Virus record (IMG/VR): IMGVR_UViG_3300048998_000030
Span: 1 to 26,958 of that record
Reading direction: 5' to 3' (one strand)
Length of the DNA stretch: 26,958 nt
From: a virus
Taxonomy: Duplodnaviria > Caudoviricetes
Shown piece by piece: positions 181 to 24,797 of this stretch. Under the pieces are notes generated by a model, which saw only the letters and a list, made by a program, of their open reading frames with translations, was not told the DNA's origin and ran no database searches. The translations under genes were made by a program, and so were the position numbers. The first letter of the stretch is position 1. Every line of letters begins with the position of its first letter.

Positions 181-443
181 ATCTTCTGTTGGATCACGGG
201 CATCCTGATGCCCGTGCATACCCTCTCGGGATGGTATGGGACGAAGCCAACATGGTAACTGAACGTCTGAACAATCGCATGGTCACTGAGTCGGTGCTGA
301 TGCAGAAAGTCATCACGGCAGTTCTCACCGGCAAGACAGGGTACGCGGATCTCCGCAAGACGCAGACGAGTTTGAATATTGAGACGGTCCCTCACGCCAC
401 CGTCGAGGGGCGAACTGAGGGACAAGTGAATGGCAAGCCGTGA
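132..443 (+). CDS. Tail assembly chaperone extension (gpT-like), probably made as a -1 frameshift fusion with the upstream ORF
   Basis: LLLDHGHPDARAYPLG motif typical of pre-tape-measure ORFs. Sits in the -1 frame relative to ORF 1-180, is open upstream of 132 and overlaps the TMP start. Confidence 0.7.
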   Translation: MDRSLAGWVWSIRKRVNLLLDHGHPDARAYPLGMVWDEANMVTERLNNRMVTESVLMQKVITAVLTGKTGYADLRKTQTSLNIETVPHATVEGRTEGQVNGKP

Positions 444-5748: not shown

Positions 5749-5751
5749 CCG

Positions 5752-6999
5752 ATGACGATCAATCCCGACAAAAACCTAGTCTACTCCAACGTCAATCCGG
5801 TGGGCGTGCAGCCCTACCGGATCTGGCCGTTGCGGCACAATTGGGCGAACTCGCTCCGGATGTCGCTGGAGTTCAAGACTGACATGCTGGTGTCCGGCAA
5901 CGGCAAAGAGCAGCGGCGTGCCGTGCGGGCAAACCCGCGCCAGTCGTTCGAGATGAACTGCAACTACTCGGGCAACGAAAAGTTCTACATGGACCGGTTC
6001 TTCGATCAGTCGCCGGCCAAGCTCGCGATCTTCCCGGTGCCCCATAAGTCCGTCAAGGGCGTGGACGGCATGGAGCCCGAGACCTACACGATGAAGTACC
6101 GTGGCGGCATCCGTGACTGGATGCACATCGGTATGATGGTGCTGATTACCGAGAAGGGCGCGGCAGAGACCCGGTACGTCTCTGGCTTTTCGAGTACACA
6201 GATGACGTTCACCCAAATGAGCATCACGCAGTTCACCAAGGACGCGGTGATCAGCCTCGCCTCGGCCGGTCGCATCGATCCAGATCCACAGTCGACTCGC
6301 CTCACTGCGGCAGCCGGCACGATCAGCATTGTCGCCACGACAAACCCCGGCTGGGACACCTATGTTCCCGGCACGCAGGATCAGTATTTCGTGGGCTTCC
6401 GCGAGTACCTGAACTACAAGACCGATTGGGGCCAGAGCCCGGCCGTGACGCACACGTGGACCCGCGACGATCTCGACTACGGCTACGGTGCGATCGAGAC
6501 CTACGTGCCGTTCGCCTATCCGTCACGCGGTACGAAGGTCAACTTCTGGCGCAAGGGCTATGACGAGTCGATGTCCATGATCGATTTCTTCTGCCGTATG
6601 CGCGGCCAGAACCGCGAGTTCCTGTTCCCTTCCTACGAGCGCCAGATCCCCTACTACGCGGCGGCTTCCCTCCAGAAGTCGATCCTGATCCACGGGCTGG
6701 ATTTCGCCTACACCTATCAGGACACGACGGTCTACAAGCGCATCCTGATCCGCAAAAAGGACGGGACAGAGATCCATGCCCAAGTTGACTTCATCCAAGC
6801 CTTGCCTGATACCAACACCTCAGTCATCTGGCTGACGGAAGAGCTGCCTGACACGCCTCTCGCACCAAACGATGTCTTCGGGATCTGGTGGGTCACGGTT
6901 GCCCGGTTCGGCACCGACCGCCTCGATATCGATTGGCTTACGGATGAGGTTGCTCAGTTCGCCTTCTCGGTGCAGAACTTGGAGAACTTCGACATATGA
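5752..6999 (+). CDS. Distal tail (Dit-like) virion protein
   Basis: Follows the TMP. HNW...LEFKTDMLVSGNGKEQRRAVRANPR motif and FFCRMRGQNREF typical of distal-tail proteins. Confidence 0.75.
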   Translation: MTINPDKNLVYSNVNPVGVQPYRIWPLRHNWANSLRMSLEFKTDMLVSGNGKEQRRAVRANPRQSFEMNCNYSGNEKFYMDRFFDQSPAKLAIFPVPHKSVKGVDGMEPETYTMKYRGGIRDWMHIGMMVLITEKGAAETRYVSGFSSTQMTFTQMSITQFTKDAVISLASAGRIDPDPQSTRLTAAAGTISIVATTNPGWDTYVPGTQDQYFVGFREYLNYKTDWGQSPAVTHTWTRDDLDYGYGAIETYVPFAYPSRGTKVNFWRKGYDESMSMIDFFCRMRGQNREFLFPSYERQIPYYAAASLQKSILIHGLDFAYTYQDTTVYKRILIRKKDGTEIHAQVDFIQALPDTNTSVIWLTEELPDTPLAPNDVFGIWWVTVARFGTDRLDIDWLTDEVAQFAFSVQNLENFDI

Positions 7000-7823
7000 G
7001 CTTTCAGGGATACGATCAGGATCAGGAACTCGGCGCACCGGTTGACCTATTCCAGTTCGTTATGAGCCCCACCCTTTCCTACTTCTATTGCTCGGCCGAC
7101 GCGGATCTGACGATCGGCGGCGTGGTCTACAAAGCGGTCCCGGTCCAGCGCCAGACGATCAAGACAAGCGGCAAGTTCGAGAAGACGAACCTTGAGATCC
7201 GCGTGCCCGTCACCACGGATCTGGCCGGGATCTTCCTGCCATACCCGCCACCGAACGTCGTGCGCGTCATCGTCCGGCAAGTCCATCTGACAGACCCGGA
7301 TCTGCAAGCGCTGGCGGTTTGGGCCGGCCGCGTGATCAGCTCGGCACGGGCAAACCATGAAGCGGTCCTGACGTGCGACAGCACGGTCCTGTCGTTCAAG
7401 CGGCCGGGGCTCAACCGGTTCTACCAGCACGGCTGCGGCCTGCTCCTGTACGGCTCGCTCTGCCGGGCAGACAAGGGATCGCACCAAGTCACGTTCAAGC
7501 CTGTCTCGATCACCGACGACGCGCTGCTGATCTTCCCGGCGAACTGGTGGCTGCCGTGGACTCACGCGAACTTCCGTGGCGGCACGATCGAGTGGACAAG
7601 TTCGCTCGGCACGGAGACCCGGACAATCATCGCCTCGGAGGAAGCCTACATCAAAGTCGGTGGACCGTTGCGCGACGTGACGACGGACACGGAGCTGACG
7701 CTGGCGCTCGGTTGCGCCCATGACATGGACGACTGCCGCAACGTCTTCAACAACATCCTGAACTACGGCGGGCAGCCGTGGATACCGTTCAAGAACCCTA
7801 CCAAGCAACACCCCTTCTGGTGA
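6996..7823 (+). CDS. Baseplate hub protein, DUF2163/BR0599 family (lambda gpL-like, Cys cluster)
   Basis: HGC...LYGSLC and GCAHDMDDCRNVFNNILNYGGQPWIP motifs; ATGA overlap with the upstream gene. Confidence 0.9.
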   Translation: MSFQGYDQDQELGAPVDLFQFVMSPTLSYFYCSADADLTIGGVVYKAVPVQRQTIKTSGKFEKTNLEIRVPVTTDLAGIFLPYPPPNVVRVIVRQVHLTDPDLQALAVWAGRVISSARANHEAVLTCDSTVLSFKRPGLNRFYQHGCGLLLYGSLCRADKGSHQVTFKPVSITDDALLIFPANWWLPWTHANFRGGTIEWTSSLGTETRTIIASEEAYIKVGGPLRDVTTDTELTLALGCAHDMDDCRNVFNNILNYGGQPWIPFKNPTKQHPFW

Positions 7824-7827
7824 CAGC

Positions 7828-8058
7828 ATGATTATTGGAATTATCATTGCGCTCGTGCTGATGATCATCGGGTACTTCCTGATGCCGAAGCCGAAGGCCG
7901 CGACACCGGATGCCGTCCAGCAGTTGGAAGCGCCGACCGCTGACGCCGGCATACCGTGGGCTGTCATGTTCGGGGATATGACTTTGAAGTCGCCAAACTT
8001 CCTCTGGTATGGCGACATCCGCAACGTCCGCAAAAAGAAGAAGAGCAAAAAGAAGTGA
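7828..8058 (+). CDS. Small tail-tip assembly protein
   Basis: Hydrophobic N-terminus then PTADAGIPWAVMFG...SPNFLWYGD, conserved between hub and tip genes in this tail type. Confidence 0.8.
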   Translation: MIIGIIIALVLMIIGYFLMPKPKAATPDAVQQLEAPTADAGIPWAVMFGDMTLKSPNFLWYGDIRNVRKKKKSKKK

Positions 8059-8258
8059 GCGAAGATCCTATCACGCTGGCCGACACCAAACGCGCCGGGC
8101 TCTGCATCAAAGGCATGCGCGAGTTCATCGAGAAGGACGGCGTCAACTTCAAGGATTTCGCCCGGAACGGCATCCCGGTGGAAACTGCCAGAGCCATCCC
8201 CGGCTGGGGCGCGATGGTCGATCACGTGCTGAAGACAAGGGAAGATCGCCGTGGGTAA
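8055..8258 (+). CDS. Small conserved tail assembly protein (67 aa)
   Basis: Start reassigned to GTG 8055, a GTGA overlap with the upstream stop. GLCIKGMREF...FKDFARNGIP motif; syntenic position. Confidence 0.75.
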   Translation: MSEDPITLADTKRAGLCIKGMREFIEKDGVNFKDFARNGIPVETARAIPGWGAMVDHVLKTREDRRG

Positions 8259-10785
8259 GGGCAAGTCAAATTCCACCATCTACTACGAGTATTATATCTC
8301 GATGCACTTTGGCTGGTGCCACGGTCCTATCGATCAGCTTATGCAGGTCTACTTTCAGGAGAAGGCCGCGCTCGATGCCGGGCAGGAGATGTCCGGTCCC
8401 GGCTCCCTGAAGATCAAGAAGACGGATCTGTTCGGCGGGTTTGAGCGCGAAGGCGGCATTATCGGCACGATCGACTGGCGTCCGGGCACCATGGATCAGA
8501 TGCAGTCTGACGAGATGGCGCAGCGGTACGGGTACGCCAAAGAGAACATGCCCGGCTATCGAGGGCTGGCGAACCTCGCCTTTCACGGCGACTCGAACTC
8601 GGATCAGGACGGCGGATCTGTCGGCACCAACAACCCGCAGGTCCCGAGCATGTGGGCGCGGCTGCGGCGATCGTCCAAGACCTTGGGCGTCAACACGGCG
8701 ATCATCCCCAGCCCTGATGGCGTCTGGTATAACAGCAACCCGGCCACCATGCTGCACGAGATCCTGTTCGACGGACAGTGGGGCATGGGCGCTGATAATG
8801 ACGACATCGAGATCCCGTCGTTCACGGGATCGGCGCAGACGCTGTTCGATGAGAAGTTCGGCATGTCGCTCGCGTGGACGAAGCAGACGACGATCGAAGC
8901 GCTCTGCCAAGAGATCCTAGACCACATCAACGGCATGATGTTCTTCAACCCGTACACCGCGAAGATGAACCTGAAGCTCATCCGCAACGACTACGACCGT
9001 GCTACGCTCCCCTCCATGGGTCCGGACAACGCGGTGCTGAAATCGTTCCAGCGCAAGCTTTGGGGCGAGACCGTCAACGAGATCATTGTCACGTGGACAG
9101 ATCCGACTGACGGCACGGAAGCGGACACAACGATCACCTATCAAGATCCCGGCAACATCGCCATGCAGGGCACGGTCTCCAGTGAGACCCGGAACTATTA
9201 TGGCATCCGCGACGAGACGCTGGCCGCAAACACGTGCATGCGGGATCTCCAGTCGTCGTCCGCGCCGCTGGCAACCATCTCGCTCGAATGCCTGCGCACC
9301 AACTGGAAGCATCTCGACGGCACGCCCATCATGCCGGGCGACTGCATCAAATTCGTCTGGCCCGAGTACGGTATCGTACAAACGATCCTGCGCGTGCTGG
9401 AGATCGATTGGGGCACGGTGGACAGCTCAAAGCTCACCGTCAATCTGATCGAGGACATCTTCTCCTTCGACCTTGCACAGTTCGCCCTGCCCGGTGGGCC
9501 GGTGTGGACAGATCCGGCCGCAGATCCCAACGGCACCGGGTATCTCCAGCTCAAGGCCAAGTTCTTTTCGGCCCCGTACACCCAGCTCCAACAGGACTTG
9601 GGCGAGGACGCAGAAGACGCGCTGATCGACTCCAACTACCCGCGTATCGTCATCGGGTGCATGGTCACTCCAGATAAGCCGATCTATGCAGACGGCGTAC
9701 TTGTTTCCGGCCAAGCAGACCTCCAGTCGTTCATCATGAATACACCCACCGTCAACACGCTGGGCGATCCCGATTGGCTCAGCCAAGGCGACAAGTCCCT
9801 GACGGCGAAGGCTACGCTCTTTACCAGCTTGGTTCCCGAAGTGCGATCCACTTTGCAGTTCAAGGACAAGTATGGCGGCGAGGGACCGCAAGTCGGCCGG
9901 TACGCCATCATCGGAAACCAAACCTCCGACGAGTTCAACGAAGAGTGGATCATGTGGGAGTCGCAAATCGATGACACCACTTGGTTCGTCCGTCGCGGCG
10001 TACTGGACACGGTGCCGGCGAACTGGAGCGGCGGTTCGATCATATGGTTCCTCGGTGAGTCGTGGGACGCATACGACCGCAGCGACACGCTGGCCGATGT
10101 CGAGGAAGAGTACGCCTTGCAGGCTCGCACGTCGAAGGGCATCCAAGACTTCGCCAACGCTACACACTTCACCACCGTTCGTCCGGATAGGCCCTATCGC
10201 CCGTACCGGCCAGCCAACGTCAAGCTCGACGGCGTGTCCTTCCAGAAGACGCCTTCGACCACCACGCTGTTCGACTACGGCCTGCTCGACTACAGCCAGA
10301 AGATTGATTGGGGACTCGATACCGATGATCAGAACGAACCGCGTGCGCCGCACTGGACGATCAACTGCTCGTGGGCAAACCGCAACAGGAAGATGGAAGA
10401 GAACGTCGTCCTCGCGTGGGATCAGGGTGACGTTTCGCCAGAGGACGGCCAAACCACTGAGATCTGGATCTACGCGAAAAAAGACGCAACGGGCAGCTAC
10501 GGTCGCCACCCGGAAGACGACACGCCGCTCGACAAGGTCGTAGGTCTGACGGGCACCAGCTTCACGCTGGACATCGTCGCCTACACATCGCAGTTGCTCA
10601 ACATGTCGCTGCGGTTCATGTCGCGCCGGGGAGACTTCGTTTCGCTGCAAGGCGCACCGGTCAACCTGTCGCTCTACGTGAAGGGCTACGGTTCGGATTG
10701 GGATTATCTCTATGGCGGCTGGCCGGCCGATGCCGTACTGCACGAATTTGAAGGCGACATCGTCCTTCCGTATTTGGGGAACTAA
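8251..10785 (+). CDS. Tail tip / central spike protein (gpJ-like)
   Basis: YYISMHFGWCHGPID, MPGYRGLA, NPA..LHEIL...WGMG, LKLIRNDY, RRGVLDTVP and W..RNR motifs. Confidence 0.88.
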   Translation: MGKGKSNSTIYYEYYISMHFGWCHGPIDQLMQVYFQEKAALDAGQEMSGPGSLKIKKTDLFGGFEREGGIIGTIDWRPGTMDQMQSDEMAQRYGYAKENMPGYRGLANLAFHGDSNSDQDGGSVGTNNPQVPSMWARLRRSSKTLGVNTAIIPSPDGVWYNSNPATMLHEILFDGQWGMGADNDDIEIPSFTGSAQTLFDEKFGMSLAWTKQTTIEALCQEILDHINGMMFFNPYTAKMNLKLIRNDYDRATLPSMGPDNAVLKSFQRKLWGETVNEIIVTWTDPTDGTEADTTITYQDPGNIAMQGTVSSETRNYYGIRDETLAANTCMRDLQSSSAPLATISLECLRTNWKHLDGTPIMPGDCIKFVWPEYGIVQTILRVLEIDWGTVDSSKLTVNLIEDIFSFDLAQFALPGGPVWTDPAADPNGTGYLQLKAKFFSAPYTQLQQDLGEDAEDALIDSNYPRIVIGCMVTPDKPIYADGVLVSGQADLQSFIMNTPTVNTLGDPDWLSQGDKSLTAKATLFTSLVPEVRSTLQFKDKYGGEGPQVGRYAIIGNQTSDEFNEEWIMWESQIDDTTWFVRRGVLDTVPANWSGGSIIWFLGESWDAYDRSDTLADVEEEYALQARTSKGIQDFANATHFTTVRPDRPYRPYRPANVKLDGVSFQKTPSTTTLFDYGLLDYSQKIDWGLDTDDQNEPRAPHWTINCSWANRNRKMEENVVLAWDQGDVSPEDGQTTEIWIYAKKDATGSYGRHPEDDTPLDKVVGLTGTSFTLDIVAYTSQLLNMSLRFMSRRGDFVSLQGAPVNLSLYVKGYGSDWDYLYGGWPADAVLHEFEGDIVLPYLGN

Positions 10786-10787
10786 GC

Positions 10788-11534
10788 ATGGGCGCGATCG
10801 TAGATATCGGCAACGTCAGCGCGCTCCGGACCTACCGGGCGCACACGAATGGCTGGGGCCATGGGATGAACCTGAACATGATCGCGCTGTCGATCATGAT
10901 GTCACCGGGCGTCAAGAGCATGACCACCGCGCTCCCCGCCAACGGCACGCAGGGCGACACCTATATCGATCCCGGCACCGGCAAAATGTGCATGTGGATC
11001 GACGCGTGGAACGACGGTGACGATCAGCCGGCCGGCTGGTATTGCCTGTCTCCGAACATCGGCTCGATCACGCTGGTCAACGACTCGCAGCACCTGATGG
11101 TCTACGAGCTGCCCGGCCAGTGGAGCTTGCTGGTGGATCTCACCGCCACCCACAATCCGGTGCAGCGCGAGCTGGCCTTCTACGCGCCGGGGCTCGTGCG
11201 CGCCAACACCTCGATCTTTGCCTACGTCGCCGGCATGGAGCTGACGTTCCCGGCTGGCGCGGACAGCTCGGGGGCCGGGCTGGAGATCGCACCGTCTGCC
11301 GCCATCACCTTCAACATCACGGGACCGGGCGGCACGTTCGGCACGATCGCCTTCGCTTCCGGTTCGCTGGTGGGCACCGTGACGATCGCCAATGAAACGA
11401 TCCTCCAGCCGGCCGTGCCGACAGAGAACCAATACGTGCAGGCGAACGTCATGAAGGTGATCTCGCCGGCAGACGTGAAAGGGGCCAGCGGTCTGAACGT
11501 GACGCTCCGTGGCAAGATCCGGGGGATCGACTGA
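10788..11534 (+). CDS. DUF2793-like tail fibre adaptor protein
   Basis: GWGHGMNLN...VKSMTTALPANGTQGDTYI...GWYCLSPNIG pattern; beta-rich C-terminal domain; follows the tip gene. Confidence 0.65.
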   Translation: MGAIVDIGNVSALRTYRAHTNGWGHGMNLNMIALSIMMSPGVKSMTTALPANGTQGDTYIDPGTGKMCMWIDAWNDGDDQPAGWYCLSPNIGSITLVNDSQHLMVYELPGQWSLLVDLTATHNPVQRELAFYAPGLVRANTSIFAYVAGMELTFPAGADSSGAGLEIAPSAAITFNITGPGGTFGTIAFASGSLVGTVTIANETILQPAVPTENQYVQANVMKVISPADVKGASGLNVTLRGKIRGID

Positions 11535-12295
11535 TGGCGATCGAACCGTACTTCCCGAAGCGCGCCTACATGGATCTGAGCTACAGCGATCATAGCCGGT
11601 TTCTCCGGGCGAACGTTCGCACGCTCCAGCGCCACGGCGAGCAACTGTGGGACAGCGACATCAACAATAATCTGAGCTACTGGACGGTCTGGATGCCGAT
11701 GTCGGTGATCTATCGCCGGGATCAGAAGCACAACATGCGCCCGCCGTTCTACAGCCCCACCGTCCAGAAATACATCATCGATCCGAAGTGGGCGAACGTG
11801 CCCGATGGCGGCGAGGATCTGATCTATTTCTATGCAACCGGCATGCTCGCCGCGCTCTACTACAAGCCGATCAACGGCGCGCTCGCGTGGGTCAAGGCCG
11901 ATCACATGCTGGTCGCCTACTGCCAAGACGAGTGGAAGGCCGTGGCCGCGCTCGATGTCAAGGACCGCAACGTCGAGATCGCGATCTACGCCAAGGGCGT
12001 GAAGCGTGGCAACCGGCCGTATGTCGCCACCCACGTCGTCGGCCAAGCGTTCACCCTGCCGGCCACCGGCCCTTCCAGCTTCCTCTCGCGAGCCCGTGGG
12101 ATCGATATCCGGACGGCGCTGATACTCACCAAGAACGGCGTGAAGGTGGGTGAAGTCTTTCAGACCCGCACGTCCTCCGGGCTGCACTCGGCCGGCGTCA
12201 CGTTCAACAAGGGCGATGTCCTCGGTATCCAGATCCCCGCTTCCGGTGGGATCAGCGACGAAATAATCATCTCCATCATTGGGAGCCTCGTTTGA
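11534..12295 (+). CDS. Divergent DUF2793-like tail protein
   Basis: W..DINNNL...KYII...YYKPINGALAWVKAD...Y..DEW parallels the upstream protein; TGATG coupling. Confidence 0.5.
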   Translation: MAIEPYFPKRAYMDLSYSDHSRFLRANVRTLQRHGEQLWDSDINNNLSYWTVWMPMSVIYRRDQKHNMRPPFYSPTVQKYIIDPKWANVPDGGEDLIYFYATGMLAALYYKPINGALAWVKADHMLVAYCQDEWKAVAALDVKDRNVEIAIYAKGVKRGNRPYVATHVVGQAFTLPATGPSSFLSRARGIDIRTALILTKNGVKVGEVFQTRTSSGLHSAGVTFNKGDVLGIQIPASGGISDEIIISIIGSLV

Positions 12296-14538
12296 CTCGA
12301 TACCTCATTGGCCGGCCCGTTGTAGCCGAACCCTACCTCGAACTTTACGAAGGCCAGTCAACCGGCACCGGCCCTGCAACGCGCCTCGGTTTCCAGCCGG
12401 GGATCGCCGGCCCGGTCAACAAGCTGAAGTTCTCGCAGAAGCTGACGGAGCTGGCGCTGGAGTGCGACTACCGCCGTGCCACAGTGCCAGGCATTGGCAA
12501 TCCGAACACGCCAATCGCCACGGGCGGGATCAAAGTCTTCTCCCCGGAAGACAACTACGTCGTGCTTGGCGGCAACGCCTCGACGCTGGCTGCCATGTAT
12601 TATCGGCGCGGCCCATACTACCTGCCGGTGCCGCCAGACAAGGTGCCCTTCCCGGTGACATCGGGCGCTTATGTCACGGCTGCGGTCATGTCGAACCAAG
12701 CCGGTGTGCTGGCCTTCATCACCTCGGACGCGCCGACGCTGGTCAAGTTCTGCGACAAGGTGACGGACGCCGAGACCGGTCTGGACACGTGGACGCAGAA
12801 GGCGACAGCGACGATCGCCACCGGTCTGACGGGCCTGTCGATCGCGCCGGACGGCTCCTACATCTCGGTATCCGCGCCGGGGATCGTCGGCCACGTCTAC
12901 AAGCTCGTCGGCACGGTCTACGTGGATGTCAGCCGCTCGGGTGCAAACCCTATTCAGGGCATGGTCAAGCGGTCTGACGGTGCGATCTACGTGATCGAAA
13001 AGTCGCTCACCGCCGCGACGGCAGCCGTGGTCTACAAATATGACGGCACGACTTGGACGCTGGTGATCACGCTGCTGATCAACACGGCCAACGGCGGCGT
13101 GTCCAGCGGCTACAAGTTCAGCCCGGACGGCAACACGATCGTCTATTGCTACACCCGGACAGCCACCGGCACCGGGGATGTTCTGTCGGTCTACCACCAC
13201 AACGGAACGACCTTCGTCAAGATGGCGTCGACTCCCGTGACCACGCCGCGTTGGCCGACGACGACAACCTGCATCGTGTCTCCGGACGGCATGTTCGCCG
13301 CTGTCAGCTTCTTCAGCATCGGCGCGTCACCGCAAAACCCAACGGTTCGGATGTACGCGCTGACGACGGCCGGCACCACGACCACCATGACGCTCGTGCA
13401 TGAATGGGTCACGACCGCTTCCTCGATCATCGCCCGGAACTTCTCGCCGGACATGTCGGTCATCCACTGCTCGAACGGCAACTCGATCGGCCAGCACTTC
13501 TCGACGGTCACGCCGTTCGGGGAGCTGACATCGATCCCGGAAGCGCCGGGCGTTGCCGCCAGCACGGTATGGGAGGTAGATTATGGAACTGTCGGGCAGG
13601 CGTCCTTCGCCATCTCGGGCTCCACCGTCATCCCGGTGATCCGCGACGGCAAGGGCAGCTATCTCGATGCCCGCATACTGGAGGGCACGTTCGTCTTCCT
13701 GTACGACCGCAAGCCGTCCGGTTCGGGTGGCGCGGACAACTTCATCGAGCGCAACTTCGTCCAGCATCTGCTTGGCACCGTCGTCACCGACATCGTCTTC
13801 TCGCCGGACAGCAAGGTCCTGCTCTACCACACGACGCGTCCGGGCGTCACCGATCAGTCGGGGCTCGGCCGGTTCGTCTACGACATCTCGCGGGCCGGCT
13901 TCATCACCTACAAGGGCGCGATCTATCTGGCCTCGGATGAAGCGAGCTTTGCCGCCGTCAATCCGTCCAGCTCCTACTTTGTCGTGTGCTTCCGCAATCC
14001 GACGAACGGCAGCAACGTCAAGCTCTATAAGCTCGATGCCTTGTTCGCCTACACGGAGAAGGACAGCCATCTGGTGGACTACGGGCCGGTGGCTTTCTCG
14101 GTCTGCGAAACGGTCGTCGTTGCCCACGGTGGGCTCACACCGTACACGCTCTACGCTCACACCTCGTCGCCTGACGTGCTGGTGCTTCAGCCGATCACCT
14201 TCACCGATTGGGACAGCGGTTCGGACATCCTTGCCGCTGCGTTCACACCGGATTGCGATGGCGTCGTTCTGCTGACACCCGACGAGATCGTGCTGCTGGA
14301 CTCCGACGACGGATCTGAAGACGACAGCTCGGATCAGCAAAACCCTCCGGACTCCACGATCGACATGGACCCGGACAGCCCGAACAGCATGATCGTCATT
14401 CCGCGAGACAACGGTGCTGCTGGTGGTAGCGCGCCCGCGAACGGTGCCGGCACTGGCATTGACGTGCCTTCGAAAAGCGTGGACAAGTTTGAATACATCC
14501 CCTACGTGGCTATCAATATCACTTACAGGACGTGGTGA
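12292..14538 (+). CDS. Beta-propeller virion protein, putative receptor-binding (748 aa)
   Basis: Repeated blade motifs IAPDGSY, FSPDGNT, VSPDGMF, FSPDMS, FSPDSK, FTPDCD; TTGA overlap start. Confidence 0.7.
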   Translation: MTRYLIGRPVVAEPYLELYEGQSTGTGPATRLGFQPGIAGPVNKLKFSQKLTELALECDYRRATVPGIGNPNTPIATGGIKVFSPEDNYVVLGGNASTLAAMYYRRGPYYLPVPPDKVPFPVTSGAYVTAAVMSNQAGVLAFITSDAPTLVKFCDKVTDAETGLDTWTQKATATIATGLTGLSIAPDGSYISVSAPGIVGHVYKLVGTVYVDVSRSGANPIQGMVKRSDGAIYVIEKSLTAATAAVVYKYDGTTWTLVITLLINTANGGVSSGYKFSPDGNTIVYCYTRTATGTGDVLSVYHHNGTTFVKMASTPVTTPRWPTTTTCIVSPDGMFAAVSFFSIGASPQNPTVRMYALTTAGTTTTMTLVHEWVTTASSIIARNFSPDMSVIHCSNGNSIGQHFSTVTPFGELTSIPEAPGVAASTVWEVDYGTVGQASFAISGSTVIPVIRDGKGSYLDARILEGTFVFLYDRKPSGSGGADNFIERNFVQHLLGTVVTDIVFSPDSKVLLYHTTRPGVTDQSGLGRFVYDISRAGFITYKGAIYLASDEASFAAVNPSSSYFVVCFRNPTNGSNVKLYKLDALFAYTEKDSHLVDYGPVAFSVCETVVVAHGGLTPYTLYAHTSSPDVLVLQPITFTDWDSGSDILAAAFTPDCDGVVLLTPDEIVLLDSDDGSEDDSSDQQNPPDSTIDMDPDSPNSMIVIPRDNGAAGGSAPANGAGTGIDVPSKSVDKFEYIPYVAINITYRTW

Positions 14539-14586
14539 CGTTCCAGCGATTCAGCTATAGCCGAAGCCACCCTTCAGGAGCGCCAC

Positions 14587-15015
14587 ATGTCCATTACCCG
14601 CATTTCCTCCCTCGCCGCCATCGTCATGTGCCAGTCGCTGATCAATCAGATCGAGATCGGCGCGGGTGTCGCCACCATCGGGATCTACGACGGCGCGATG
14701 CCGGCCGACCTCGAAACACCGATCGTCGCTCAAAACGAGCTGGTCATTCTGGAGCTGCCGAGCCCGGCTTTCGCTGATGCCATCGCATCCGGCACGGGCG
14801 GCACGGCTGTCATCAACACGGTCCCGGCCGTTGCCGCAACACTGAGCGGCACCGCCACCTTCGCCCGCCTGTTCAACAAGAACGGCGATGCCGTGCTAGA
14901 CGTGGACGTGTCCAACGCCGATGGCAACGGGGCGCTGAAGCTGTCCTCCGTGACGGTGGTTGCGGATGTCAACGTTTCCGTCGTTTCCCTCACCATCACT
15001 CAGCGCAAAGCTTAA
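14587..15015 (+). CDS. Small beta-rich virion protein, paralogue 1 (142 aa)
   Basis: AGGAG RBS; IYDGAMP...L..PAF...GTATFARL...G..VLD.DV motif shared with 15031 and 16916. Confidence 0.8.
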   Translation: MSITRISSLAAIVMCQSLINQIEIGAGVATIGIYDGAMPADLETPIVAQNELVILELPSPAFADAIASGTGGTAVINTVPAVAATLSGTATFARLFNKNGDAVLDVDVSNADGNGALKLSSVTVVADVNVSVVSLTITQRKA

Positions 15016-15030
15016 CAGGAGATCCGGGAC

Positions 15031-15471
15031 ATGGTCCTACGCATTAAGAACTCTCTCGCCATGATCGCATGCGATGCCATCGTGGATCAGATCGACGTCG
15101 GAGCCGGCACGTCGCTGCTCCAGATCTACAGCGGCGTGAAGCCCGTGAACCTCGGTGACGCGATCGGCGCGCAGGTCAAGCTGGCCGAGTTCGCCCTGCC
15201 AGATCCTTGCTTCGGCAATGCCGTTTCCACGACTGGCGGCGGCACGGCCACGGCTGACGTTGCCGACATTCCGACAGCCACCGCGCCTGCCGGTGCCGGT
15301 GCCGGTACGGTCGCCACTTGGTTCCGCGTCATTGACGGCAACGGCGCACCGATCATGGACGGCGAAGTCACCGACACGGCCGGCGTCGGCCCCATGAAGC
15401 TCGCCAACACCACCGTCGTCGCCAACATTGACGTGACTGTGGTTTCTTGGACCTGCTTCCACCCTGAATAA
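15031..15471 (+). CDS. Small beta-rich virion protein, paralogue 2 (146 aa)
   Basis: AGGAG RBS; LQIYSGVKP...QVKLAEFALPDPCF...ATWFRVIDGNG..IMDGEVT. Confidence 0.8.
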   Translation: MVLRIKNSLAMIACDAIVDQIDVGAGTSLLQIYSGVKPVNLGDAIGAQVKLAEFALPDPCFGNAVSTTGGGTATADVADIPTATAPAGAGAGTVATWFRVIDGNGAPIMDGEVTDTAGVGPMKLANTTVVANIDVTVVSWTCFHPE

Positions 15472-15495
15472 GAACGACAACAGTGAGGGCCGATC

Positions 15496-16902
15496 GTGGC
15501 AGTAGGGCAGCCGTATCTCGTCGTGTGGTCGAAGGTGGACAACACCGTTCGACTATTTGAACTCTCGGGATCAGCGTTTGTCCAGATCGGCACGTCGGCT
15601 CTCACCGTTGGATCTGATGTCGTCAGCAATGGGCGACTATTCTTCAGCGCCGATGGCAACCACATCCTCGGCGTCGGCAAGGCCAGCTTGGCTGCCACGA
15701 CCGCGCTTCTCTACAATTGGGATCTGACACTGACGCTCATCCAAGCCGCCGTTGCGCGGCCGACGATGGCAGCCGTCAATCACTTTGCTGCGGATCTCAC
15801 CAAGACGAACAACATCCTTTCCGTCGATCCGGCGAGCGCCAACTATGCCACGGCGCTGCTCGTGTCCGGCCAGCTCGACACGGTAGCGACTTCCGCTTTC
15901 GGTGACAGCTCCTACGTCAAGTGGTCGCCGGATGAGACCGGCCTGTTCCAGATCGCCGCCAGCGTCAGCCAGATCGTGCGCGTCTCCGGGCGATCCGGGA
16001 TCTACGCCAACGCCTTCGTCGTCACCAATCTGCCGAACGCCGGCCCCGGTGTGGTCGCGGACTGGTCATCGGACTCCAAGTATCTGTTCATCGGCTGCTC
16101 GAACGGCACCGTCGAGTGCTGGGCTTGGGACGGTTCGGCCGCGACACTCACGCAGCAGATGGCAAGCCCCGGCTACGGCGCGGTCACGGCTGTCTCGGTT
16201 CGCCCCGGTGGACGCTATGTCGCGATCGGCTATTTCGACGGTACGACCTACCGCACCGTGATCTACCGCCGCATCGGTCCATACCTGAAGCAGTTGCAGG
16301 TTATCTCTGGTCTCGGCCGGCTGCTGAACTGGACGCAGGACGGCCAGTATCTGCTCGATGCCGGCAGCAAGGTGGGCTACCAGTACGTCGGCAATGACGT
16401 GTTCTCGCAGGTCACGGGCATGCTCGATGCCGTGCCGGCCAACGTCGTGTCGCAGGCTGTCAGCCCGCATGCCGTCAGCGTGACAGGGTCGCCGCAGCTC
16501 TACGATCTGGCGGTGCCGGCGATCGTCAACAAGACCTACGATCCGACCGGGATCAAGTTCGCGCTGCTCGATGCCACGGCCACCTTCAGCCACAACGCAA
16601 CGTCGGCCATGGCGATCAAGGGCGGCAAGGAAGTCTCGGGCAACAACTGGCCGGAAGGCGGCAAGCCTGTCGCGAACCTGCACGTCGCTACGAACTCGAT
16701 CGGCGCGGTCGCCTCGGCCGACAACACGACGCAGGCGATCACCGGCACCACGGGGCTCGACTTCCGCTACGGCCTGATCTACGACGCAACGCACGACACG
16801 CCGCTCGTGTGGGTCGATTGGGGCGCAGCGCAGCACGTCGACTCCTCCATGACTATCGTTTTGAATTTCAGCTCGCCGGGCCTTATCCAGTTCGCGACTT
16901 AA
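15496..16902 (+). CDS. Beta-propeller protein fused to a C-terminal ~130-aa phage structural domain
   Basis: Blades FSADGNH, WSPDET, WSSDSKYL, VRPGGRYV, WTQDGQYL. C-terminal KFALL...EVSGNNWPEGG...RYGLIYD...PLVWVDWG domain is common in phage fibre-region genes. Confidence 0.72.
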   Translation: MAVGQPYLVVWSKVDNTVRLFELSGSAFVQIGTSALTVGSDVVSNGRLFFSADGNHILGVGKASLAATTALLYNWDLTLTLIQAAVARPTMAAVNHFAADLTKTNNILSVDPASANYATALLVSGQLDTVATSAFGDSSYVKWSPDETGLFQIAASVSQIVRVSGRSGIYANAFVVTNLPNAGPGVVADWSSDSKYLFIGCSNGTVECWAWDGSAATLTQQMASPGYGAVTAVSVRPGGRYVAIGYFDGTTYRTVIYRRIGPYLKQLQVISGLGRLLNWTQDGQYLLDAGSKVGYQYVGNDVFSQVTGMLDAVPANVVSQAVSPHAVSVTGSPQLYDLAVPAIVNKTYDPTGIKFALLDATATFSHNATSAMAIKGGKEVSGNNWPEGGKPVANLHVATNSIGAVASADNTTQAITGTTGLDFRYGLIYDATHDTPLVWVDWGAAQHVDSSMTIVLNFSSPGLIQFAT

Positions 16903-16915
16903 CAGGGGGCCGACG

Positions 16916-17338
16916 ATGGTCAATCGACTTAGCTATGCTGCCGCTGGAGCTGCGCTTAACGCTATCAACGCCCTGTTCAATGTCGGCACCGGCAACGCGC
17001 TGCTGCGCATGTATTCCGGCGCACGACCGGCAAGCGTCGAGACCGCTGTTTCCACGCAGGTTCTGCTGGCCGAGTTCATCCTGCCCAATCCGTTGTTCCC
17101 GGCCGCGACCGGCGTTCTCAGCACGGCGCAGGCAAACGCGGCGGCGATCGCTGCTGTCAACGGGCTGGCGAACGGCACGGCGACTTGGTTCCGCGTCCTC
17201 GACCGCAACGGGCTGGCTGTCATGGATGGCGACATAACGGAGTATCCCGGCACCGGGGCGCTGCAAGTCCCGACCGCCGCTGTCGCTTCCGGCAAGCCGG
17301 TGATCATCAATGGATGGCAATCCGTCTTCCCGCTGTAA
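16916..17338 (+). CDS. Small beta-rich virion protein, paralogue 3 (140 aa)
   Basis: LRMYSGARP...QVLLAEFILPNPLF...GTATWFRVLDRNG..VMDGDIT. Confidence 0.8.
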   Translation: MVNRLSYAAAGAALNAINALFNVGTGNALLRMYSGARPASVETAVSTQVLLAEFILPNPLFPAATGVLSTAQANAAAIAAVNGLANGTATWFRVLDRNGLAVMDGDITEYPGTGALQVPTAAVASGKPVIINGWQSVFPL

Positions 17339-17350
17339 GGTTCCGCGCCC

Positions 17351-19963
17351 GTGACGTTTGTACCTTCACTTCTTCAGCTACCAGATCCCGCGCTGCTGCC
17401 GGCAGGCATTGCCCGTGGCGCTGTCTGGTCGCCCAACGGGACGTATTGCGTCGTCCATCTGGCCGTCTCGCCGTACATAATCATCTACAAGCGTGTCGGT
17501 GAAACGCTGACGGCGATCCCCACGGCAAGCCGGCCGTCGCCCACGGGCGAGACCCGCTGCGGCACGTGGACCTCGGACAGCGCCTACTACATCTACGGCC
17601 AAGCCTCGCCCTCGCCGTTCATGCGGACGTTCCATAATAACGGCGATGACACGTTCACCGCTGTCACGACTCCTGCGTCCACCCTGTTCGGCGGCGATGT
17701 CGCGTGGTCTCCGGACACGTCTGTCGTCATCACGGCCAAGAACGCCTCTCCGTGGATTGGAGCCTACGGCCAGAACAGCCTGACGTTCACCGCTTGGACG
17801 CTCGCCTATGTCGGCGCAGCGATCTCGGGGCGCGTTTATGCGGCCACTTTCTCGCCTGACGGTGCCTACCTTATGGCGGCGGGCTTTTCCGACGCCCCGT
17901 ATATCTGGCTCTATCAGCTCTCTGATCTCACCGGCACCAAGCTGACGCTGTCCCGAGTCACCATTTACGATACGGACGGCGTCACGCCGCTCACTGTCGG
18001 TGGCGGCATCAACCGCGTCGGCTGGATGAAGAGCAAGAACGTCTTCGCCATCATCTCGAACGATATGGTTTTGCGTATCGTCCAGATGACTGGCACACTG
18101 ACGGCAAAGGTTGTCCGGGCGGTCACGGTGCCGGGCACGGGCAACAGCAACGGTTCGACCGAGTTCAGTTCCGACGACCGCAAGCTCTACTACACCACCG
18201 ACAACGGCGGCGGGTTTGTCGATATCAATCCGACGACATTCGTTATCAGCGATCCGCGTGGCGCAAACGCGAACCCGCCGACGACAACGGAGAAGTTCAC
18301 CACGGCGATCGTCGCGGCTGACGGCAAGCAGTACGTCGCTGTCACCGGCAACGATGCACCGTACTTCCGTTGGTATAAGACGCTCGACCGCCTCGCCAAC
18401 ACGCAGTATGGCGGCTACAGCGTGGCGCTCAAGGGCGCGGCCACGCAGGTCAATGTTGCGGCAAGCTTCCAGTCTCTGACGATGGCCGCGATCGGCGCGA
18501 ACATGCAGAGCATAGCCACCCGCGACTACGCGCCGGCAACGGCCTATGTCGGCATGGAAGCGCTCGTGCCCACCGTCTCGCAGATGTTCGCGGAAGTCGC
18601 TGACATCGAGATGGCGTTCAAGCCGCTGACATCGGCCAGTCTCGTGCGGCTGCGAGATCCGGACATCCTTGCCGCCAGCTTCCAGTCGCTGAAGACCGAC
18701 GCCTTCGTGATGGTTCCGAAACAGGTGTTCGCGGACTTCGCGTTCGGCAAGCTGACGACGGAAGCCTCGATCACGATTGTCCCGGAGATCTACGCGCCCT
18801 TCGCGTTCGGCGCGCTGACGACTGACATCCTGCTCAGCAAGCCTCTCTACCCGTCGTCGCTCGAAATGTCGTTTGGCGCGCTCACCTCGGACGGCCTCCT
18901 GCGACAGTTCGACCGCGACTCGATAGCCGCGTCTTTCGGTTCGCTCACGACCGCCGTGGATGTGAAGGTCCCGGTCTATTACTATGCCGAGTTCGCCTTC
19001 CAGAGCTTGACGACGGACGGCCTGATCAACGTGCCGATCGACGCGCACCTCGAAATGTCCTTCGGCGCTTTGAGCGAAGAGCTGGTGGGTGACGTGCCGA
19101 TCGACGCGCACCTCGCCATGTCGTTCAATCCGTTGTCGGCCGAGCTGGTGGGCGACGTGCCGGAAGCCATCTGGATAGCCGGTTCCTTCGGCAGGCTGAC
19201 GGCCGAGCTGGAAGGCAACGTCCCGGAAGCGATCTGGATTGCCGGTTCGTTCAGCAAGCTGACGGCGGATGTCGTGGGCAACGTGCCGCGTGCCATCTGG
19301 ATCGACGGAACGTTCAGCAAGTTCACGATGGCTTCCGAAGTCAAGGTGCCGTACCCGATGTCTATCGAGATGTCGTTCGGTTCGCTGACGGCCGAGCTGG
19401 AAGGCAACGTGCCGCGTGCTGTCTGGATCGAGGACTTCGCCTTCCAGCCGCTGACGATGGCTATTCAGGGCGGTTCCACGATCGGGCTGGACACGCGGCT
19501 GAACTTCGGCCGGCTGACGACCGTGGGCGTGATCGGATATCCTATTGTCATCGAGCCGCAGGACATCGTCCTGCCCTTCGTGGACGTGGCCGGCCGGTTG
19601 ACGATGATCGACTATCTCGACGGCGATCTGACGATGCCAGGGTTTTTCGCTGAAGGCGAGCTGCTGCTGTTTTACGGGATCGAGGGCGCGATCGAGCTGC
19701 CCTTCGTGGACGTTGCCGGCGAGCTGGCCTTCCTCTATCAGGTGTTCGCGGACATCGAGCTGCCGTTCATCCAGATCGACGGGGATCTCTACATGGACAT
19801 GGATCTCTCCGGAGACATCGTCCTGCCCTTCGTGGAGGTACGCGGATCAGGAGCTGCTGACACATCCGGGACCGGTAGCGCGCCAACGCTGATAGGCGAC
19901 ACGGATACGGTTCGCTTGGGTGGCGGCGTCTACTTTGGTTTCGAAGCTCTAACGATAGGATAA
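17351..19963 (+). CDS. Beta-propeller plus 21-aa tandem-repeat virion protein (870 aa)
   Basis: N-terminal ~345 aa has WSPNGTY, WTSDSAY, WSPDTS, FSPDGAYL, FSSDDRK blades; the C-terminal half is 21-aa repeats. Confidence 0.8.
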   Translation: MTFVPSLLQLPDPALLPAGIARGAVWSPNGTYCVVHLAVSPYIIIYKRVGETLTAIPTASRPSPTGETRCGTWTSDSAYYIYGQASPSPFMRTFHNNGDDTFTAVTTPASTLFGGDVAWSPDTSVVITAKNASPWIGAYGQNSLTFTAWTLAYVGAAISGRVYAATFSPDGAYLMAAGFSDAPYIWLYQLSDLTGTKLTLSRVTIYDTDGVTPLTVGGGINRVGWMKSKNVFAIISNDMVLRIVQMTGTLTAKVVRAVTVPGTGNSNGSTEFSSDDRKLYYTTDNGGGFVDINPTTFVISDPRGANANPPTTTEKFTTAIVAADGKQYVAVTGNDAPYFRWYKTLDRLANTQYGGYSVALKGAATQVNVAASFQSLTMAAIGANMQSIATRDYAPATAYVGMEALVPTVSQMFAEVADIEMAFKPLTSASLVRLRDPDILAASFQSLKTDAFVMVPKQVFADFAFGKLTTEASITIVPEIYAPFAFGALTTDILLSKPLYPSSLEMSFGALTSDGLLRQFDRDSIAASFGSLTTAVDVKVPVYYYAEFAFQSLTTDGLINVPIDAHLEMSFGALSEELVGDVPIDAHLAMSFNPLSAELVGDVPEAIWIAGSFGRLTAELEGNVPEAIWIAGSFSKLTADVVGNVPRAIWIDGTFSKFTMASEVKVPYPMSIEMSFGSLTAELEGNVPRAVWIEDFAFQPLTMAIQGGSTIGLDTRLNFGRLTTVGVIGYPIVIEPQDIVLPFVDVAGRLTMIDYLDGDLTMPGFFAEGELLLFYGIEGAIELPFVDVAGELAFLYQVFADIELPFIQIDGDLYMDMDLSGDIVLPFVEVRGSGAADTSGTGSAPTLIGDTDTVRLGGGVYFGFEALTIG
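18455..19850 (+). repeat. In-frame ~63-bp (21-aa) tandem repeats of two classes
   Basis: 16 clear F-x-x-[LF]-[TSK] units plus one degenerate unit, then 5 [DA]-[IL]-x-[LM]-P units. DNA-level similarity is obvious at units starting 19031, 19094, 19157, 19220, 19283 and 19346. Confidence 0.92.
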
Positions 19964-19967
19964 GGCC

Positions 19968-20246
19968 ATGGCCGAGACTGCAAAACTGACGATCTTCCGG
20001 GACGCGTGGACTCAGGTCCCTGTCGCCACCAGCTATCTTGCCGTCCAGCTCGGCGGCGGCGGATCGCTTCGCATCCACATCTCGGACGTGGAGCCGACTG
20101 CCGACAATGAGGACGGCGTGATCATCGCGTGGAACCGCGAGAACACACCGTCCAGCTTCGGTGCCGGCAACCTGCCGACCGGCGTCATGGTCTTCGTGCG
20201 CGCCGAGTCGACAGACGAACAAGAGATCACCTACCTCACCTACTGA
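19968..20246 (+). CDS. Small beta-sandwich-like hypothetical protein (92 aa), probably structural
   Basis: AGGA RBS region; last gene of the fibre operon; alternating hydrophobic pattern. Confidence 0.65.
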   Translation: MAETAKLTIFRDAWTQVPVATSYLAVQLGGGGSLRIHISDVEPTADNEDGVIIAWNRENTPSSFGAGNLPTGVMVFVRAESTDEQEITYLTY

Positions 20247-20568
20247 CGCGATTGCGCACGCCGACGTAGCGCAGCAGTTTCTCCATCACGCCGTTCAACG
20301 GCTGGAAGCTGCGCACGCCGGCTGCATCGTCCTCGGCCTTCCACTGCGAAGCCATGCGACACATGACCGCCCACGCGCCCTTGTCCTTGGCGTTGGCCCG
20401 ATCGAACCTCATAGCCATGAAGATATCGTACAGCTCAGCCCCGCGCTGCTTGCGCCGGTTGTTGTAAACCGTGCCGCAGGCGTGCGCGCAGAACTTCTTC
20501 TCGTAACGGACAGAGGGGCCGATAGGCTTGCCGCATTCAAGGCAACCAGCAGTGCCGTTATTATTCAT
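20236..20568 (-). CDS. Zinc-finger protein (CxxC...CxxxC), possible regulator
   Basis: CLECG...KKFCAHAC then basic YNNRRKQRGAELYD; fills the gap between the tail and lysis operons. Confidence 0.75.
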   Translation of the reverse strand: MNNNGTAGCLECGKPIGPSVRYEKKFCAHACGTVYNNRRKQRGAELYDIFMAMRFDRANAKDKGAWAVMCRMASQWKAEDDAAGVRSFQPLNGVMEKLLRYVGVRNRVSR

Positions 20569-23963: not shown

Positions 23964-24138
23964 CTTCCCACTCCGGGTCCGGCGCGAACGTCCAGCCCTC
24001 TTTCACCTTCACCCAATCACCCGCGCAGACCTGTACGCTCTCGGATGCCAGCACGCCGGCTATGTCATGATCCGGGTCCAGCCCAAGGATCTCTATGAGC
24101 TGGGCGTCGGTGATGTATTCGCGTTTCGGTTCTTCCAT
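23956..24138 (-). CDS. Hypothetical acidic protein (60 aa)
   Basis: Overlaps neighbours on both sides (TAATG upstream, 8-nt overlap downstream). Confidence 0.65.
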   Translation of the reverse strand: MEEPKREYITDAQLIEILGLDPDHDIAGVLASESVQVCAGDWVKVKEGWTFAPDPEWEDG

Positions 24139-24797
24139 TACACTACCTCTGCGATGTCCGGGTACATGATCGGATCTGTGAACTTGTTGGCTTCCTTGCC
24201 GTGGATCGTCCAGTCGCCGTGCTGCTCGCGGCCGAACATTTCGAGATATGGACCCTGCACCAGCCGCTCGATCTGCTTCCAGATGTCGGACGGCTTGCGG
24301 CTATGTTCCCGGCGCGGGGAGACTAGCAGGCGCGGCACGTTCTTGGCGTCCCGTGGTGGGGCTCCCACCGTGGCGAGGAAGCAGCGCTCGACCTCCTGCT
24401 CGGTCTCACCGAAGTACGCCTCATAGACGTGTTCAGGGTTCGCCCTTGTCCAGTGGCCGGTGCCTTGGAAGAACGTCTTGCCGTCCTTGTTCGTCTTGCC
24501 CCAATAGAAGCCGATCGTCTTGTACTTGAAGCCCCACGCCTTCAGGACTTCGTGTGCCATCTCGACGTGGCTGTCGATCACCCACATGAACAGGACGCAG
24601 TTTTTGTCGCAGAGATCCCGGACAGGCATGGCCTTGATCTCGTCTAGGGTCATCGTTTCGTAGTGGCGATCCGGTGAGCGGTCCATGCCCTTTGGGGATC
24701 TCGTGACATATCTCCATGGGGGGTCGCACAGAATTGCGCGATAGCGTTTGTAGCCCAAGCCCTTGAACGGCCCGGACTGGATAAGTTGTATGCTCAC
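24138..24797 (-). CDS. MT-A70 family N6-adenine methyltransferase
   Basis: DPPW catalytic motif, HYETM, LFMW, AWGFKYKT, REHSRKP and YLEMFGR. Confidence 0.93.
   Translation of the reverse strand: MSIQLIQSGPFKGLGYKRYRAILCDPPWRYVTRSPKGMDRSPDRHYETMTLDEIKAMPVRDLCDKNCVLFMWVIDSHVEMAHEVLKAWGFKYKTIGFYWGKTNKDGKTFFQGTGHWTRANPEHVYEAYFGETEQEVERCFLATVGAPPRDAKNVPRLLVSPRREHSRKPSDIWKQIERLVQGPYLEMFGREQHGDWTIHGKEANKFTDPIMYPDIAEVV

Follow-up and report, generated by a model that had tools for sequence, protein, structure and literature searches.

A seven-gene block with a 21-residue repeat

The window analysed here is the whole of the viral record IMGVR_UViG_3300048998_000030 (Caudoviricetes; 26,958 bases, with an estimated completeness of 45%), in which positions 12292-20246 were filled by seven plus-strand genes encoding proteins of 748, 142, 146, 468, 140, 870 and 92 amino acids (aa), named below by these lengths. 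The block very probably builds a virion fibre of the beads-on-a-rope kind, in which the repeat protein g870 (the rope) would thread dimers of the small proteins g142, g146 and g140 (the beads). The features of the block were as follows.

12292..14538, + strand: g748, propeller-like protein whose N- and C-terminal segments are conserved and strand-like (PD40, E 3e-5)
14587..15015, + strand: g142, bead subunit (phrog_3758, E 1.4e-24)
15031..15471, + strand: g146, bead subunit (phrog_3758, E 2.4e-26)
15496..16902, + strand: g468, propeller-like domain and C-terminal domain of ~140 aa (16474-16899) (phrog_24741, E 2e-44; phrog_644, E 2e-4)
16916..17338, + strand: g140, bead subunit (phrog_3758; matches to PDB 9RKV_A and 44NX_B; AlphaFold2 model)
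17351..19963, + strand: g870, rope protein with N-terminal propeller-like domain (about 17351-18370), repeat tract and short C-terminal tail (Pfam, autocorrelation, repeat profile)
18443..19543, + strand: 16 class A repeats of g870 (F-x-x-L-T), at residue 365 and then 415-731 (self-trained profile)
19547..19861, + strand: 5 class B repeats of g870 (LP-F-V), residues 733-837 (autocorrelation, self-trained profile)
19862..19963, + strand: C-terminal tail of g870 with four hydrophobic-Gly motifs, candidate anchor peptide (motif count)
19968..20246, + strand: g92, small eight-stranded jelly-roll-like protein, candidate anchor of the rope tail (phrog_4772, E 1e-4; model with a predicted local distance difference test score, pLDDT, of 83)

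Each of the small proteins matched phrog_3758 over its full length (134-141 residues, E 1e-24 to 6e-29) and pairwise identities among the 142-, 146- and 140-aa sequences were 34-39%, in agreement with the initial annotation, which had described three paralogous proteins of ~140 aa. Relatives of g146 at E<=0.001 formed 813 clusters among 1.84 billion representative sequences. In searches of the PDB, g140 alone matched 9RKV_A (E 2e-9) and 44NX_B (E 0.008), and a 14-sequence profile made without the 44NX protein matched 44NX at E 1.5e-12; the match of this profile to 9RKV is circular because gp014 sits in that alignment, whereas the match obtained with g140 alone is not. According to the cited parts of the two reports, 9RKV is the tail-fibre model of phage 7-7-1, in which gp014 forms "garland" homodimers (PMC12796354), and 44NX is the fibre of podophage A1002, with 11 dimers of the 147-aa gp40 and gp41, each dimer and the rope gp39 together forming an augmented beta-sheet (PMC13730344). 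Judged by its length, 44NX chain B is gp40. In KPP25, which belongs to the same genus as A1002, genes of 171, 147 and 620 aa stood in a row, and the 147-aa protein belonged to phrog_3758 (E 1.5e-33).

An AlphaFold2 monomer model of g140 (pLDDT 93; 73 sequences, including gp014) resembled 9RKV_A with a TM score of 0.87 and Z 17.1, and the Sf14 neck chain 9c39_K with Z 9.4 (root-mean-square deviation 2.5, 108 residues aligned). By sequence, the small proteins are relatives of the A1002 fibre dimer gp40 and of the 7-7-1 garland dimer, and by analogy with these the bead subunits are predicted to form two-fold dimers. In a tree of 26 bead proteins, the nearest named relatives of g140 were 7-7-1 gp012 and Milano gp127, with which it grouped apart from the garland pair gp014/gp125 (support 84/93, not starred). 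The backbone of this tree was unresolved, so that it cannot match the three paralogues of the window to the three of the related cassette G003. Other fold relatives of the g140 model in BFVD came from the Erwinia jumbo phages Alexandra and Yoloswag, from Rheinheimera phage Barba31A and from among actinophage minor tail proteins; in the control genomes, phrog_3758 registered in Synechococcus elongatus.

The regularity of the g870 tract was evident from the BLOSUM autocorrelation of residues 346-845, which was 0.80 at lag 21 while the best lag over 200 shuffles was never above -0.46. A self-trained profile placed 21 repeats of 21 aa, one at residue 365 and the others at 415-837. The tract of about 22 such units in the initial annotation was recovered, the 22nd, a degenerate repeat near residue 344, being recognised by eye only. 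Tandem Repeats Finder reported a period of 63 nucleotides at 19029-19321. The repeat region had no sequence match in the PDB, and a search for homologues returned only g870 itself among 8000 scored candidates, while another search gave one weak propeller match.

The first repeat of g870 was followed by a 50-residue gap (residues 386-414, about 18506-18592), and a gap of 50-54 residues after the first one to three repeats was common to the window, the related cassettes G002, G003 and G006, phage RHph_N46 and 7-7-1 gp010. In the baseplate arm of phi812, as described in the part of the report cited, six segment dimers are connected by scaffold linkers so that their sheets are continuous, and docking loops between the dimers carry receptor-binding proteins (PMC13433997). 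The conserved gap is a possible parallel to these loops and, by this analogy, might serve to dock an adhesin at the side of the fibre.

Three related cassettes (G001, G002 and G003) had the same order of elements, namely a large propeller protein, one or three beads, a propeller with the C-domain, a propeller with the rope and a g92 relative, and the last three of these were seen in G006. By profile, with stray propeller hits excluded, the ropes of G001, G002, G003 and G006 held about 16-18, 15-17, 14 and 28 repeats, so that gene order was kept while the repeat count ranged from about 14 to 28. A g92 relative directly followed the rope in all four cassettes. Beads, g468 relatives and period-21 proteins were also present in the myoviruses 7-7-1, Atu_ph07 and RHph_N46; no g92 relative was found in any of these three or in phage Chi (0/4). 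The 7-7-1 block comprised two beads, a propeller with the C-domain and two repeat proteins, gp010 with 13 repeats and gp009 with 5, and the Atu_ph07 rope had about 17 regular repeats.

Propeller-like proteins and g92

Three beta-propeller proteins had been claimed for the block. Pfam WD40, PD40 or propeller matches were indeed noted in g748, g468 and g870, all of them weak, and only the PD40 match of g748 reached the cut-off. Relatives of g748 with 1024-1092 aa were found in G001-G003 (E down to 1e-37). At both ends of g748 (12292-12370 and 14460-14538), as in G001-G003, a conserved Pro was followed by an alternating hydrophobic strand, and by eye these terminal segments possibly resemble single rope sites.

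The second propeller-like protein, g468, was related to 7-7-1 gp011 (E 1.6e-25). Its C-terminal domain has the size of the small proteins, as the initial annotation had remarked; it showed no detectable sequence similarity to them, and as a candidate fourth phrog_3758 paralogue it was rejected (phmmer E>0.2, hhalign probability 0.2%). The nearest named Atlas family was PF23140 Gp80, a GP4 fibre subunit (0.86), which is a lead only; the domain is possibly a fused bead of another family.

The final 92-aa protein of the initial annotation corresponds to g92. Its model gave no PDB match in Foldseek at E<=0.001, with the RcGTA base protein absent from the matches listed, and neither its sequence nor its alignment found anything significant in the PDB.

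Association of bead genes with palindromic 21-residue repeats

Co-occurrence of the subunit family with 21-aa repeat genes across phages, which the initial annotation had suggested as a check, was examined in 80 bead loci (the best 80 of at least 579 small-protein relatives in viral contigs, selected by one motif) and 80 tail-tip control loci chosen by hub gene, amounting to 0.89 Mb of bead DNA and 1.16 Mb of control DNA. Because the loci are related and the palindrome axis was taken from the same data, the locus counts and the palindromy counts that follow are only indicative and are not independent. A same-strand open reading frame (ORF) of period 21 was noted beside the bead gene in 43/80 bead loci, compared with 2/80 control loci, where one of the two ORFs encoded a long coiled-coil-like protein. 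For periods of 20-25 the corresponding counts were 48/80, at a median distance of 1.7 kb, and 6/80. After clustering at 90% and 70% identity, such ORFs were present in 40 of 64 and 23 of 31 clusters, respectively, and they were found in 36 of the 48 bead loci that had at least 4 kb of downstream DNA. Repeat sequences varied widely between loci while period 21 persisted.

Palindromy was assessed in 37 tracts (33 from IMG/VR, the window and three named phages), each of period 21 with at least 4 copies and 63 residues in register, after removal of duplicates. Mirror positions of the pooled profile carried like residues, i.e., G at -8/+8, T/S at -7/+7, A/G at -6/+6 and A/S at -5/+5, with Q commonest at -4/+4. 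Pseudo-palindromy exceeded that of column shuffles at p<0.05 in 24 of the 37 tracts and that of a null preserving the in/out alternation in 30; for the window tract, p was about 0.03 under both nulls. A chain that passes through a two-fold dimer would encounter one and the same groove two times, once in each direction, and this would select mirror symmetry. The palindromy of the repeat agrees better with a two-fold dimer than with a monomer as the unit bound by each repeat. Few sites in g870, none in 7-7-1 gp010 and one weak site in the KPP25 rope were found with the pooled rope profile, which is thus too composition-specific to serve as a detector.

Repeats of other lengths were noted at several loci. 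Chi gp36 (L092 14142-16271, from residue 514) and AchV4 gp28 (L093 10255-11991, from residue 288) each contained ~7 copies of a 25-residue repeat; neither locus had a phrog_3758 bead, and the two proteins are candidates for ropes that serve a different bead family of Chi-like phages. Strand-like repeats of 22, 20 and 22 residues occurred in control loci L128 (8007-10082), L134 (17625-20093) and L164 (3600-5126), respectively, with no phrog_3758 gene. Other bead families may have their own repeat periods.

Proposed fibre and alternative interpretations

In the fibre that we propose, one extended g870 chain would pass through about 21-22 predicted bead dimers (about 42-44 subunits), and each 21-residue repeat would complete the beta-sheets in the two subunits of one dimer, its mirror-like halves (e.g., W-I-A-G-S-F and L-T-A-E-L-E on either side of G-R) serving one subunit each. 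Dimers and beta-augmentation are taken here from the solved relatives; for A1002, 20.5 rope residues per dimer are obtained by arithmetic on the assumption that residues 243-468 carry the 11 dimers. We infer a ruler role for the tract, whereby fibre length would be set by the repeat count, at most about 150-160 nm when fully extended and less if dimers stack as in A1002. The polarity would make the N-terminal propeller of g870 an adhesin at the free end and put its C-terminal tail at the virion, docked on g92, with g468 and g748 adding further propellers. The A1002 rope has separate stretches for its two types of dimer and, by analogy, the class A and class B stretches perhaps select different bead paralogues.

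This arrangement retains much of the mechanism in the initial annotation, in which the repeat chain completes the sandwiches of the small subunits and probably sets the length, and both the homology to the A1002 fibre and the co-occurrence of beads and repeats support it; the unit bound per repeat, given there as one small subunit or small oligomer, is most probably a two-fold dimer rather than a monomer. Donor-strand pili, the comparison drawn in that annotation, are less apt as a precedent than the rope-and-dimer fibres of phages (GP4, Bas63, phi812 and A1002). In such pili a different chain supplies the strand that fills an incomplete sandwich, donation passes from one subunit to the following one, and both a chaperone and an usher are required. 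In contrast, one separate chain would serve all subunits in the window, and no chaperone or usher family was noted among the 26 window proteins scanned from this partial record.

Several observations weigh against the proposed fibre. No repeat of period 20-25 was detected in 32 of the 80 bead loci, many of which were short, nor was a tract seen in 12 of the 48 loci with at least 4 kb of downstream DNA. Six control loci contained a bead gene with no tract in the DNA fetched, and when two of these were extended a rope was found just beyond, the other four being kept at their fetched length. In VP16C, a bead was present and a tract was not detected. The KPP25 rope lacked a significant fixed period (best lag 20, -0.54; 95th percentile of shuffles -0.43); seven hydrophobic-Pro sites at spacings of 19-23, picked by eye, were noted in it, a number equal to that of the gp40 dimers. 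With the palindrome axis used for the alternation-preserving null, Atu_ph07 gp575 (p 0.38) and 7-7-1 gp009 (p 0.72) showed no significant palindromy. Similarities of the g140 model to GP4 fibre I (Z 5.7) and to a phi812 chain (Z 5.6) were middling, and Z values under 8 may reflect common arrangements. Finally, the solved relatives from 7-7-1 and Milano form a baseplate garland in which no string was identified.

This last point also favours a different interpretation, that the repeat tract folds by itself as a beta-solenoid or homotrimeric shaft while the small proteins are assembled separately, as a garland or decoration of a different string, e.g., the termini of g748. The closest solved relative, 7-7-1 gp014, is a garland around tail fibres for which no string was identified, and such a fold would agree with the failure of the repeat region to match the PDB or any of the 8000 scored candidates other than itself. 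We consider this interpretation very unlikely, since a self-folding shaft would not need a constant period, whereas period 21 was held over unrelated repeat sequences specifically beside the bead family; in addition, g140 grouped with gp012/gp127 rather than with the garland pair. A version in which every repeat supplies a single strand to a single monomer, so that a fibre would contain about 22 subunits, is more improbable still. The co-occurrence data would be the same, and three paralogues with a fused domain could occupy different places on one chain; against this version, every solved relative is a dimer, the repeat has two mirror-like halves and A1002 would use about 20.5 rope residues per dimer.

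Setting of the block and attachment of the fibre

A Chi-type tail module occupied positions 430-12295 and encoded the tape measure, distal tail protein, DUF2163-type hub, a 76-aa protein, the tip protein and two gp31-type fibre genes. Its families (phrog_2335, 1082, 778, 1180, 1101 and 7049) followed the same order in Chi, a match to a Casjensviridae-like module of the Chi type, although the hub protein also matched 760 phage records from many groups, at under 60%. No head genes were noted among the scanned proteins of the record. The fibre genes immediately before the block were the following.

10788..11534, + strand: g248, DUF2793-like member of the Chi gp31-type tail-fibre family, on the 5' side of the block (phrog_7049, E 6e-6; phrog_5363, E 9e-9)
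11534..12295, + strand: g253, paralogue of g248 (26% identity to g248, E 3e-6; phrog_7049, E 0.007)

A relative 40% identical to g248 was found in the equivalent position in G003. In Chi, gp31 is followed by the five genes gp32-36, and it is this slot that the block occupies. Thus, the block replaces gp32-36 and not a gp31-type fibre gene, and the statement in the initial annotation that it stands in place of one trimeric tail fibre was contradicted by the two phrog_7049 genes directly upstream. On the 3' side, the block was followed by an opposite-strand 110-aa gene and then by the endolysin gene.

Two sites of attachment were weighed. Anchorage at a capsid vertex, with the C-terminal tail of g870 seated on g92, comes close to an even chance without reaching it. 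Consistent with this placement, g92 directly followed the rope in the four related cassettes, and all five siphophage-type rope tails carried 4-5 hydrophobic-Gly motifs, compared with 8 of 508 control ORFs having 4 or more. Furthermore, g92 was modelled as a small eight-stranded jelly-roll-like fold, and the cited part of the RcGTA report describes a jelly-roll base for the head spike, in which a pentamer grips a terminal peptide of the fibre with repeated hydrophobic-Gly motifs (PMC7296036). One g92 relative weakly matched a "head protein" family (E 0.006), and 7-7-1 and Atu_ph07, which carry bead, propeller and rope genes, have capsid fibres. In opposition to this placement, the block sits among tail genes, the motif count was weak compared with shuffles of each tail (p 0.016-0.11; 0.11 for the window), the four phages searched (7-7-1, Atu_ph07, RHph_N46 and Chi) had no g92 relative, myophage ropes end differently, and the g92 model lacked a fold match at the threshold used.

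Suspension of the fibre from the tail tip or neck through g248/g253, g748 or g92, in place of Chi gp32-36, likewise has slightly less than an even chance. The block follows the tail-tip module and gp31-type genes, and all solved rope fibres are attached to the tail, neck or baseplate. At L129 (6468-10004), a bead gene lay 5' of a distal-tail-like protein with N-terminal repeats that looked rope-like by eye and were below the detector threshold. Such an attachment does not account for a rope tail with 4-5 copies of a motif being paired with the gene of a small jelly-roll-like protein, and the 7-7-1 block adjoins terminase and portal genes.

Implications for 7-7-1, Milano and Atu_ph07

Among named phages, those with the blocks most like this one infect Agrobacterium and Rhizobium. 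In the part of the 7-7-1 report cited, one fibre of 88-114 nm is described at each capsid vertex, wrapping the flagellum, and the fibre proteins are stated to be unknown (PMC12796354); in that of the Atu_ph07 report, whiskers are mainly associated with the capsid (PMC6102473). For 7-7-1 gp010, with its 13 repeats, an extended length of 90-96 nm was calculated, compared with the 88-114 nm observed for the capsid fibres. We suggest, as a tentative proposal that is less likely to be right than wrong, that the block is an alphaproteobacterial head-fibre module with a palindromic 21-residue code contributing up to about 7 nm per repeat. In the window, a g92 pentamer would be located at the vertices and a propeller at the tip; gp010 with gp012 dimers would form the flagellum-wrapping capsid fibre of 7-7-1, and gp575 with gp577 the capsid hairs of Atu_ph07. 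Milano provides an argument both against this assignment for 7-7-1 and against the capsid vertex in general, since its proteins are about 89% identical to those of 7-7-1 and both beads are encoded in its genome, but the part of the report cited identifies no long fibres on it (PMC10811340). The same part describes a Milano garland of gp125/gp127 with a string that is stated to be unclear, and the 7-7-1 repeats could be the garland string instead. The cited part of PMC8310070 held nothing further on these 7-7-1-type genes.

Rope proteins of the bead family become recognisable from sequence by their 21-residue pseudo-palindrome, and candidate genes can thereby be named for the 7-7-1 capsid fibres (PMC12796354), the Milano garland string (PMC10811340) and the Atu_ph07 capsid whiskers (PMC6102473), again with reference to the parts of those reports cited. 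Fibre length against repeat count offers a numerical test in a cultured phage.

Comparison with known fibres

Given the bead homology and the fold matches to solved fibres, the mechanism put forward in the initial annotation is that of the published rope-and-dimer fibre. The principle is not new, and the architecture, with precedents in GP4, Bas63, phi812 and A1002, has been solved in several phages. The variant described here is distinguished by regular palindromic sites, by a rope that bears a propeller, by the presence of three bead paralogues and additional propellers, and by a candidate anchor. A literature search, which was not aimed at palindromes and did not extend to the GP4, VP1 and Sf14 papers or to supplements, found no paper with a 21-residue palindrome or with the assignments suggested for 7-7-1, Milano and Atu_ph07.

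Of the known systems, A1002 shares with the window a bead that is a sequence relative and, as predicted here from genes, dimers on one rope, two bead types on two stretches and about 20 rope residues per dimer. The word "repeat" is absent from the main text of the A1002 paper (PMC13730344). A1002 differs in being a podophage whose rope is part of the nozzle and carries 11 dimers, the KPP25 counterpart being irregularly spaced, whereas the window represents a long-tailed phage with 21-22 regular sites, a rope that includes a propeller-like domain, a single bead family represented by three paralogues, two further propeller-like proteins and g92.

The garland protein gp014 of 7-7-1 was the closest structure to g140, and 7-7-1 carries the same block. 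Unlike the window, 7-7-1 and Milano are myoviruses in which the garland rings the baseplate, and in 7-7-1 rope tails end in Arg-rich strands and no g92 relative was found. The whiskers of Bas63 and Sf14 and fibre I of GP4 have a fold related to that of g140 at 12-15% identity, with 2 or 5 dimers and collar anchorage. Bas63 whisker dimers are described as incomplete beta-sandwiches completed by the rope, as "beads on a string", and no propeller is reported in the part of that account cited (PMC12609058). The phi812 arm (with A511 gp105/T4 gp8) is part of a contractile baseplate, and its fold score (Z 5.6) was weak. Like RcGTA, the window has a small gene, its product modelled as jelly-roll-like, adjoining a fibre gene with a candidate hydrophobic-Gly terminal peptide; in RcGTA this peptide is N-terminal with period 2, and g92 gave no match to the RcGTA base by either sequence or fold.

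Additional observations

At the C-terminus of several ropes (L014, L017, L028 and L070), a short motif was present in 2-6 copies, and the gene after the rope encoded 84-135 aa; some ropes of this group adjoined, by eye, head protease or head-tail connector genes. In Mycobacterium phage Papyrus (L178 1831-4339, gp32-34), gp34 was a bead relative and a few weak rope-like sites were noted in the N-terminal part of gp32. The 110-aa gene of the window (20236-20568, - strand; phrog_20494, DUF2116-like) was antisense between g92 and the endolysin gene, and a similar gene was likewise placed in G003 and G006. A methyltransferase of the MT-A70 family (E 5e-30) was encoded at 24138-24797 on the - strand.

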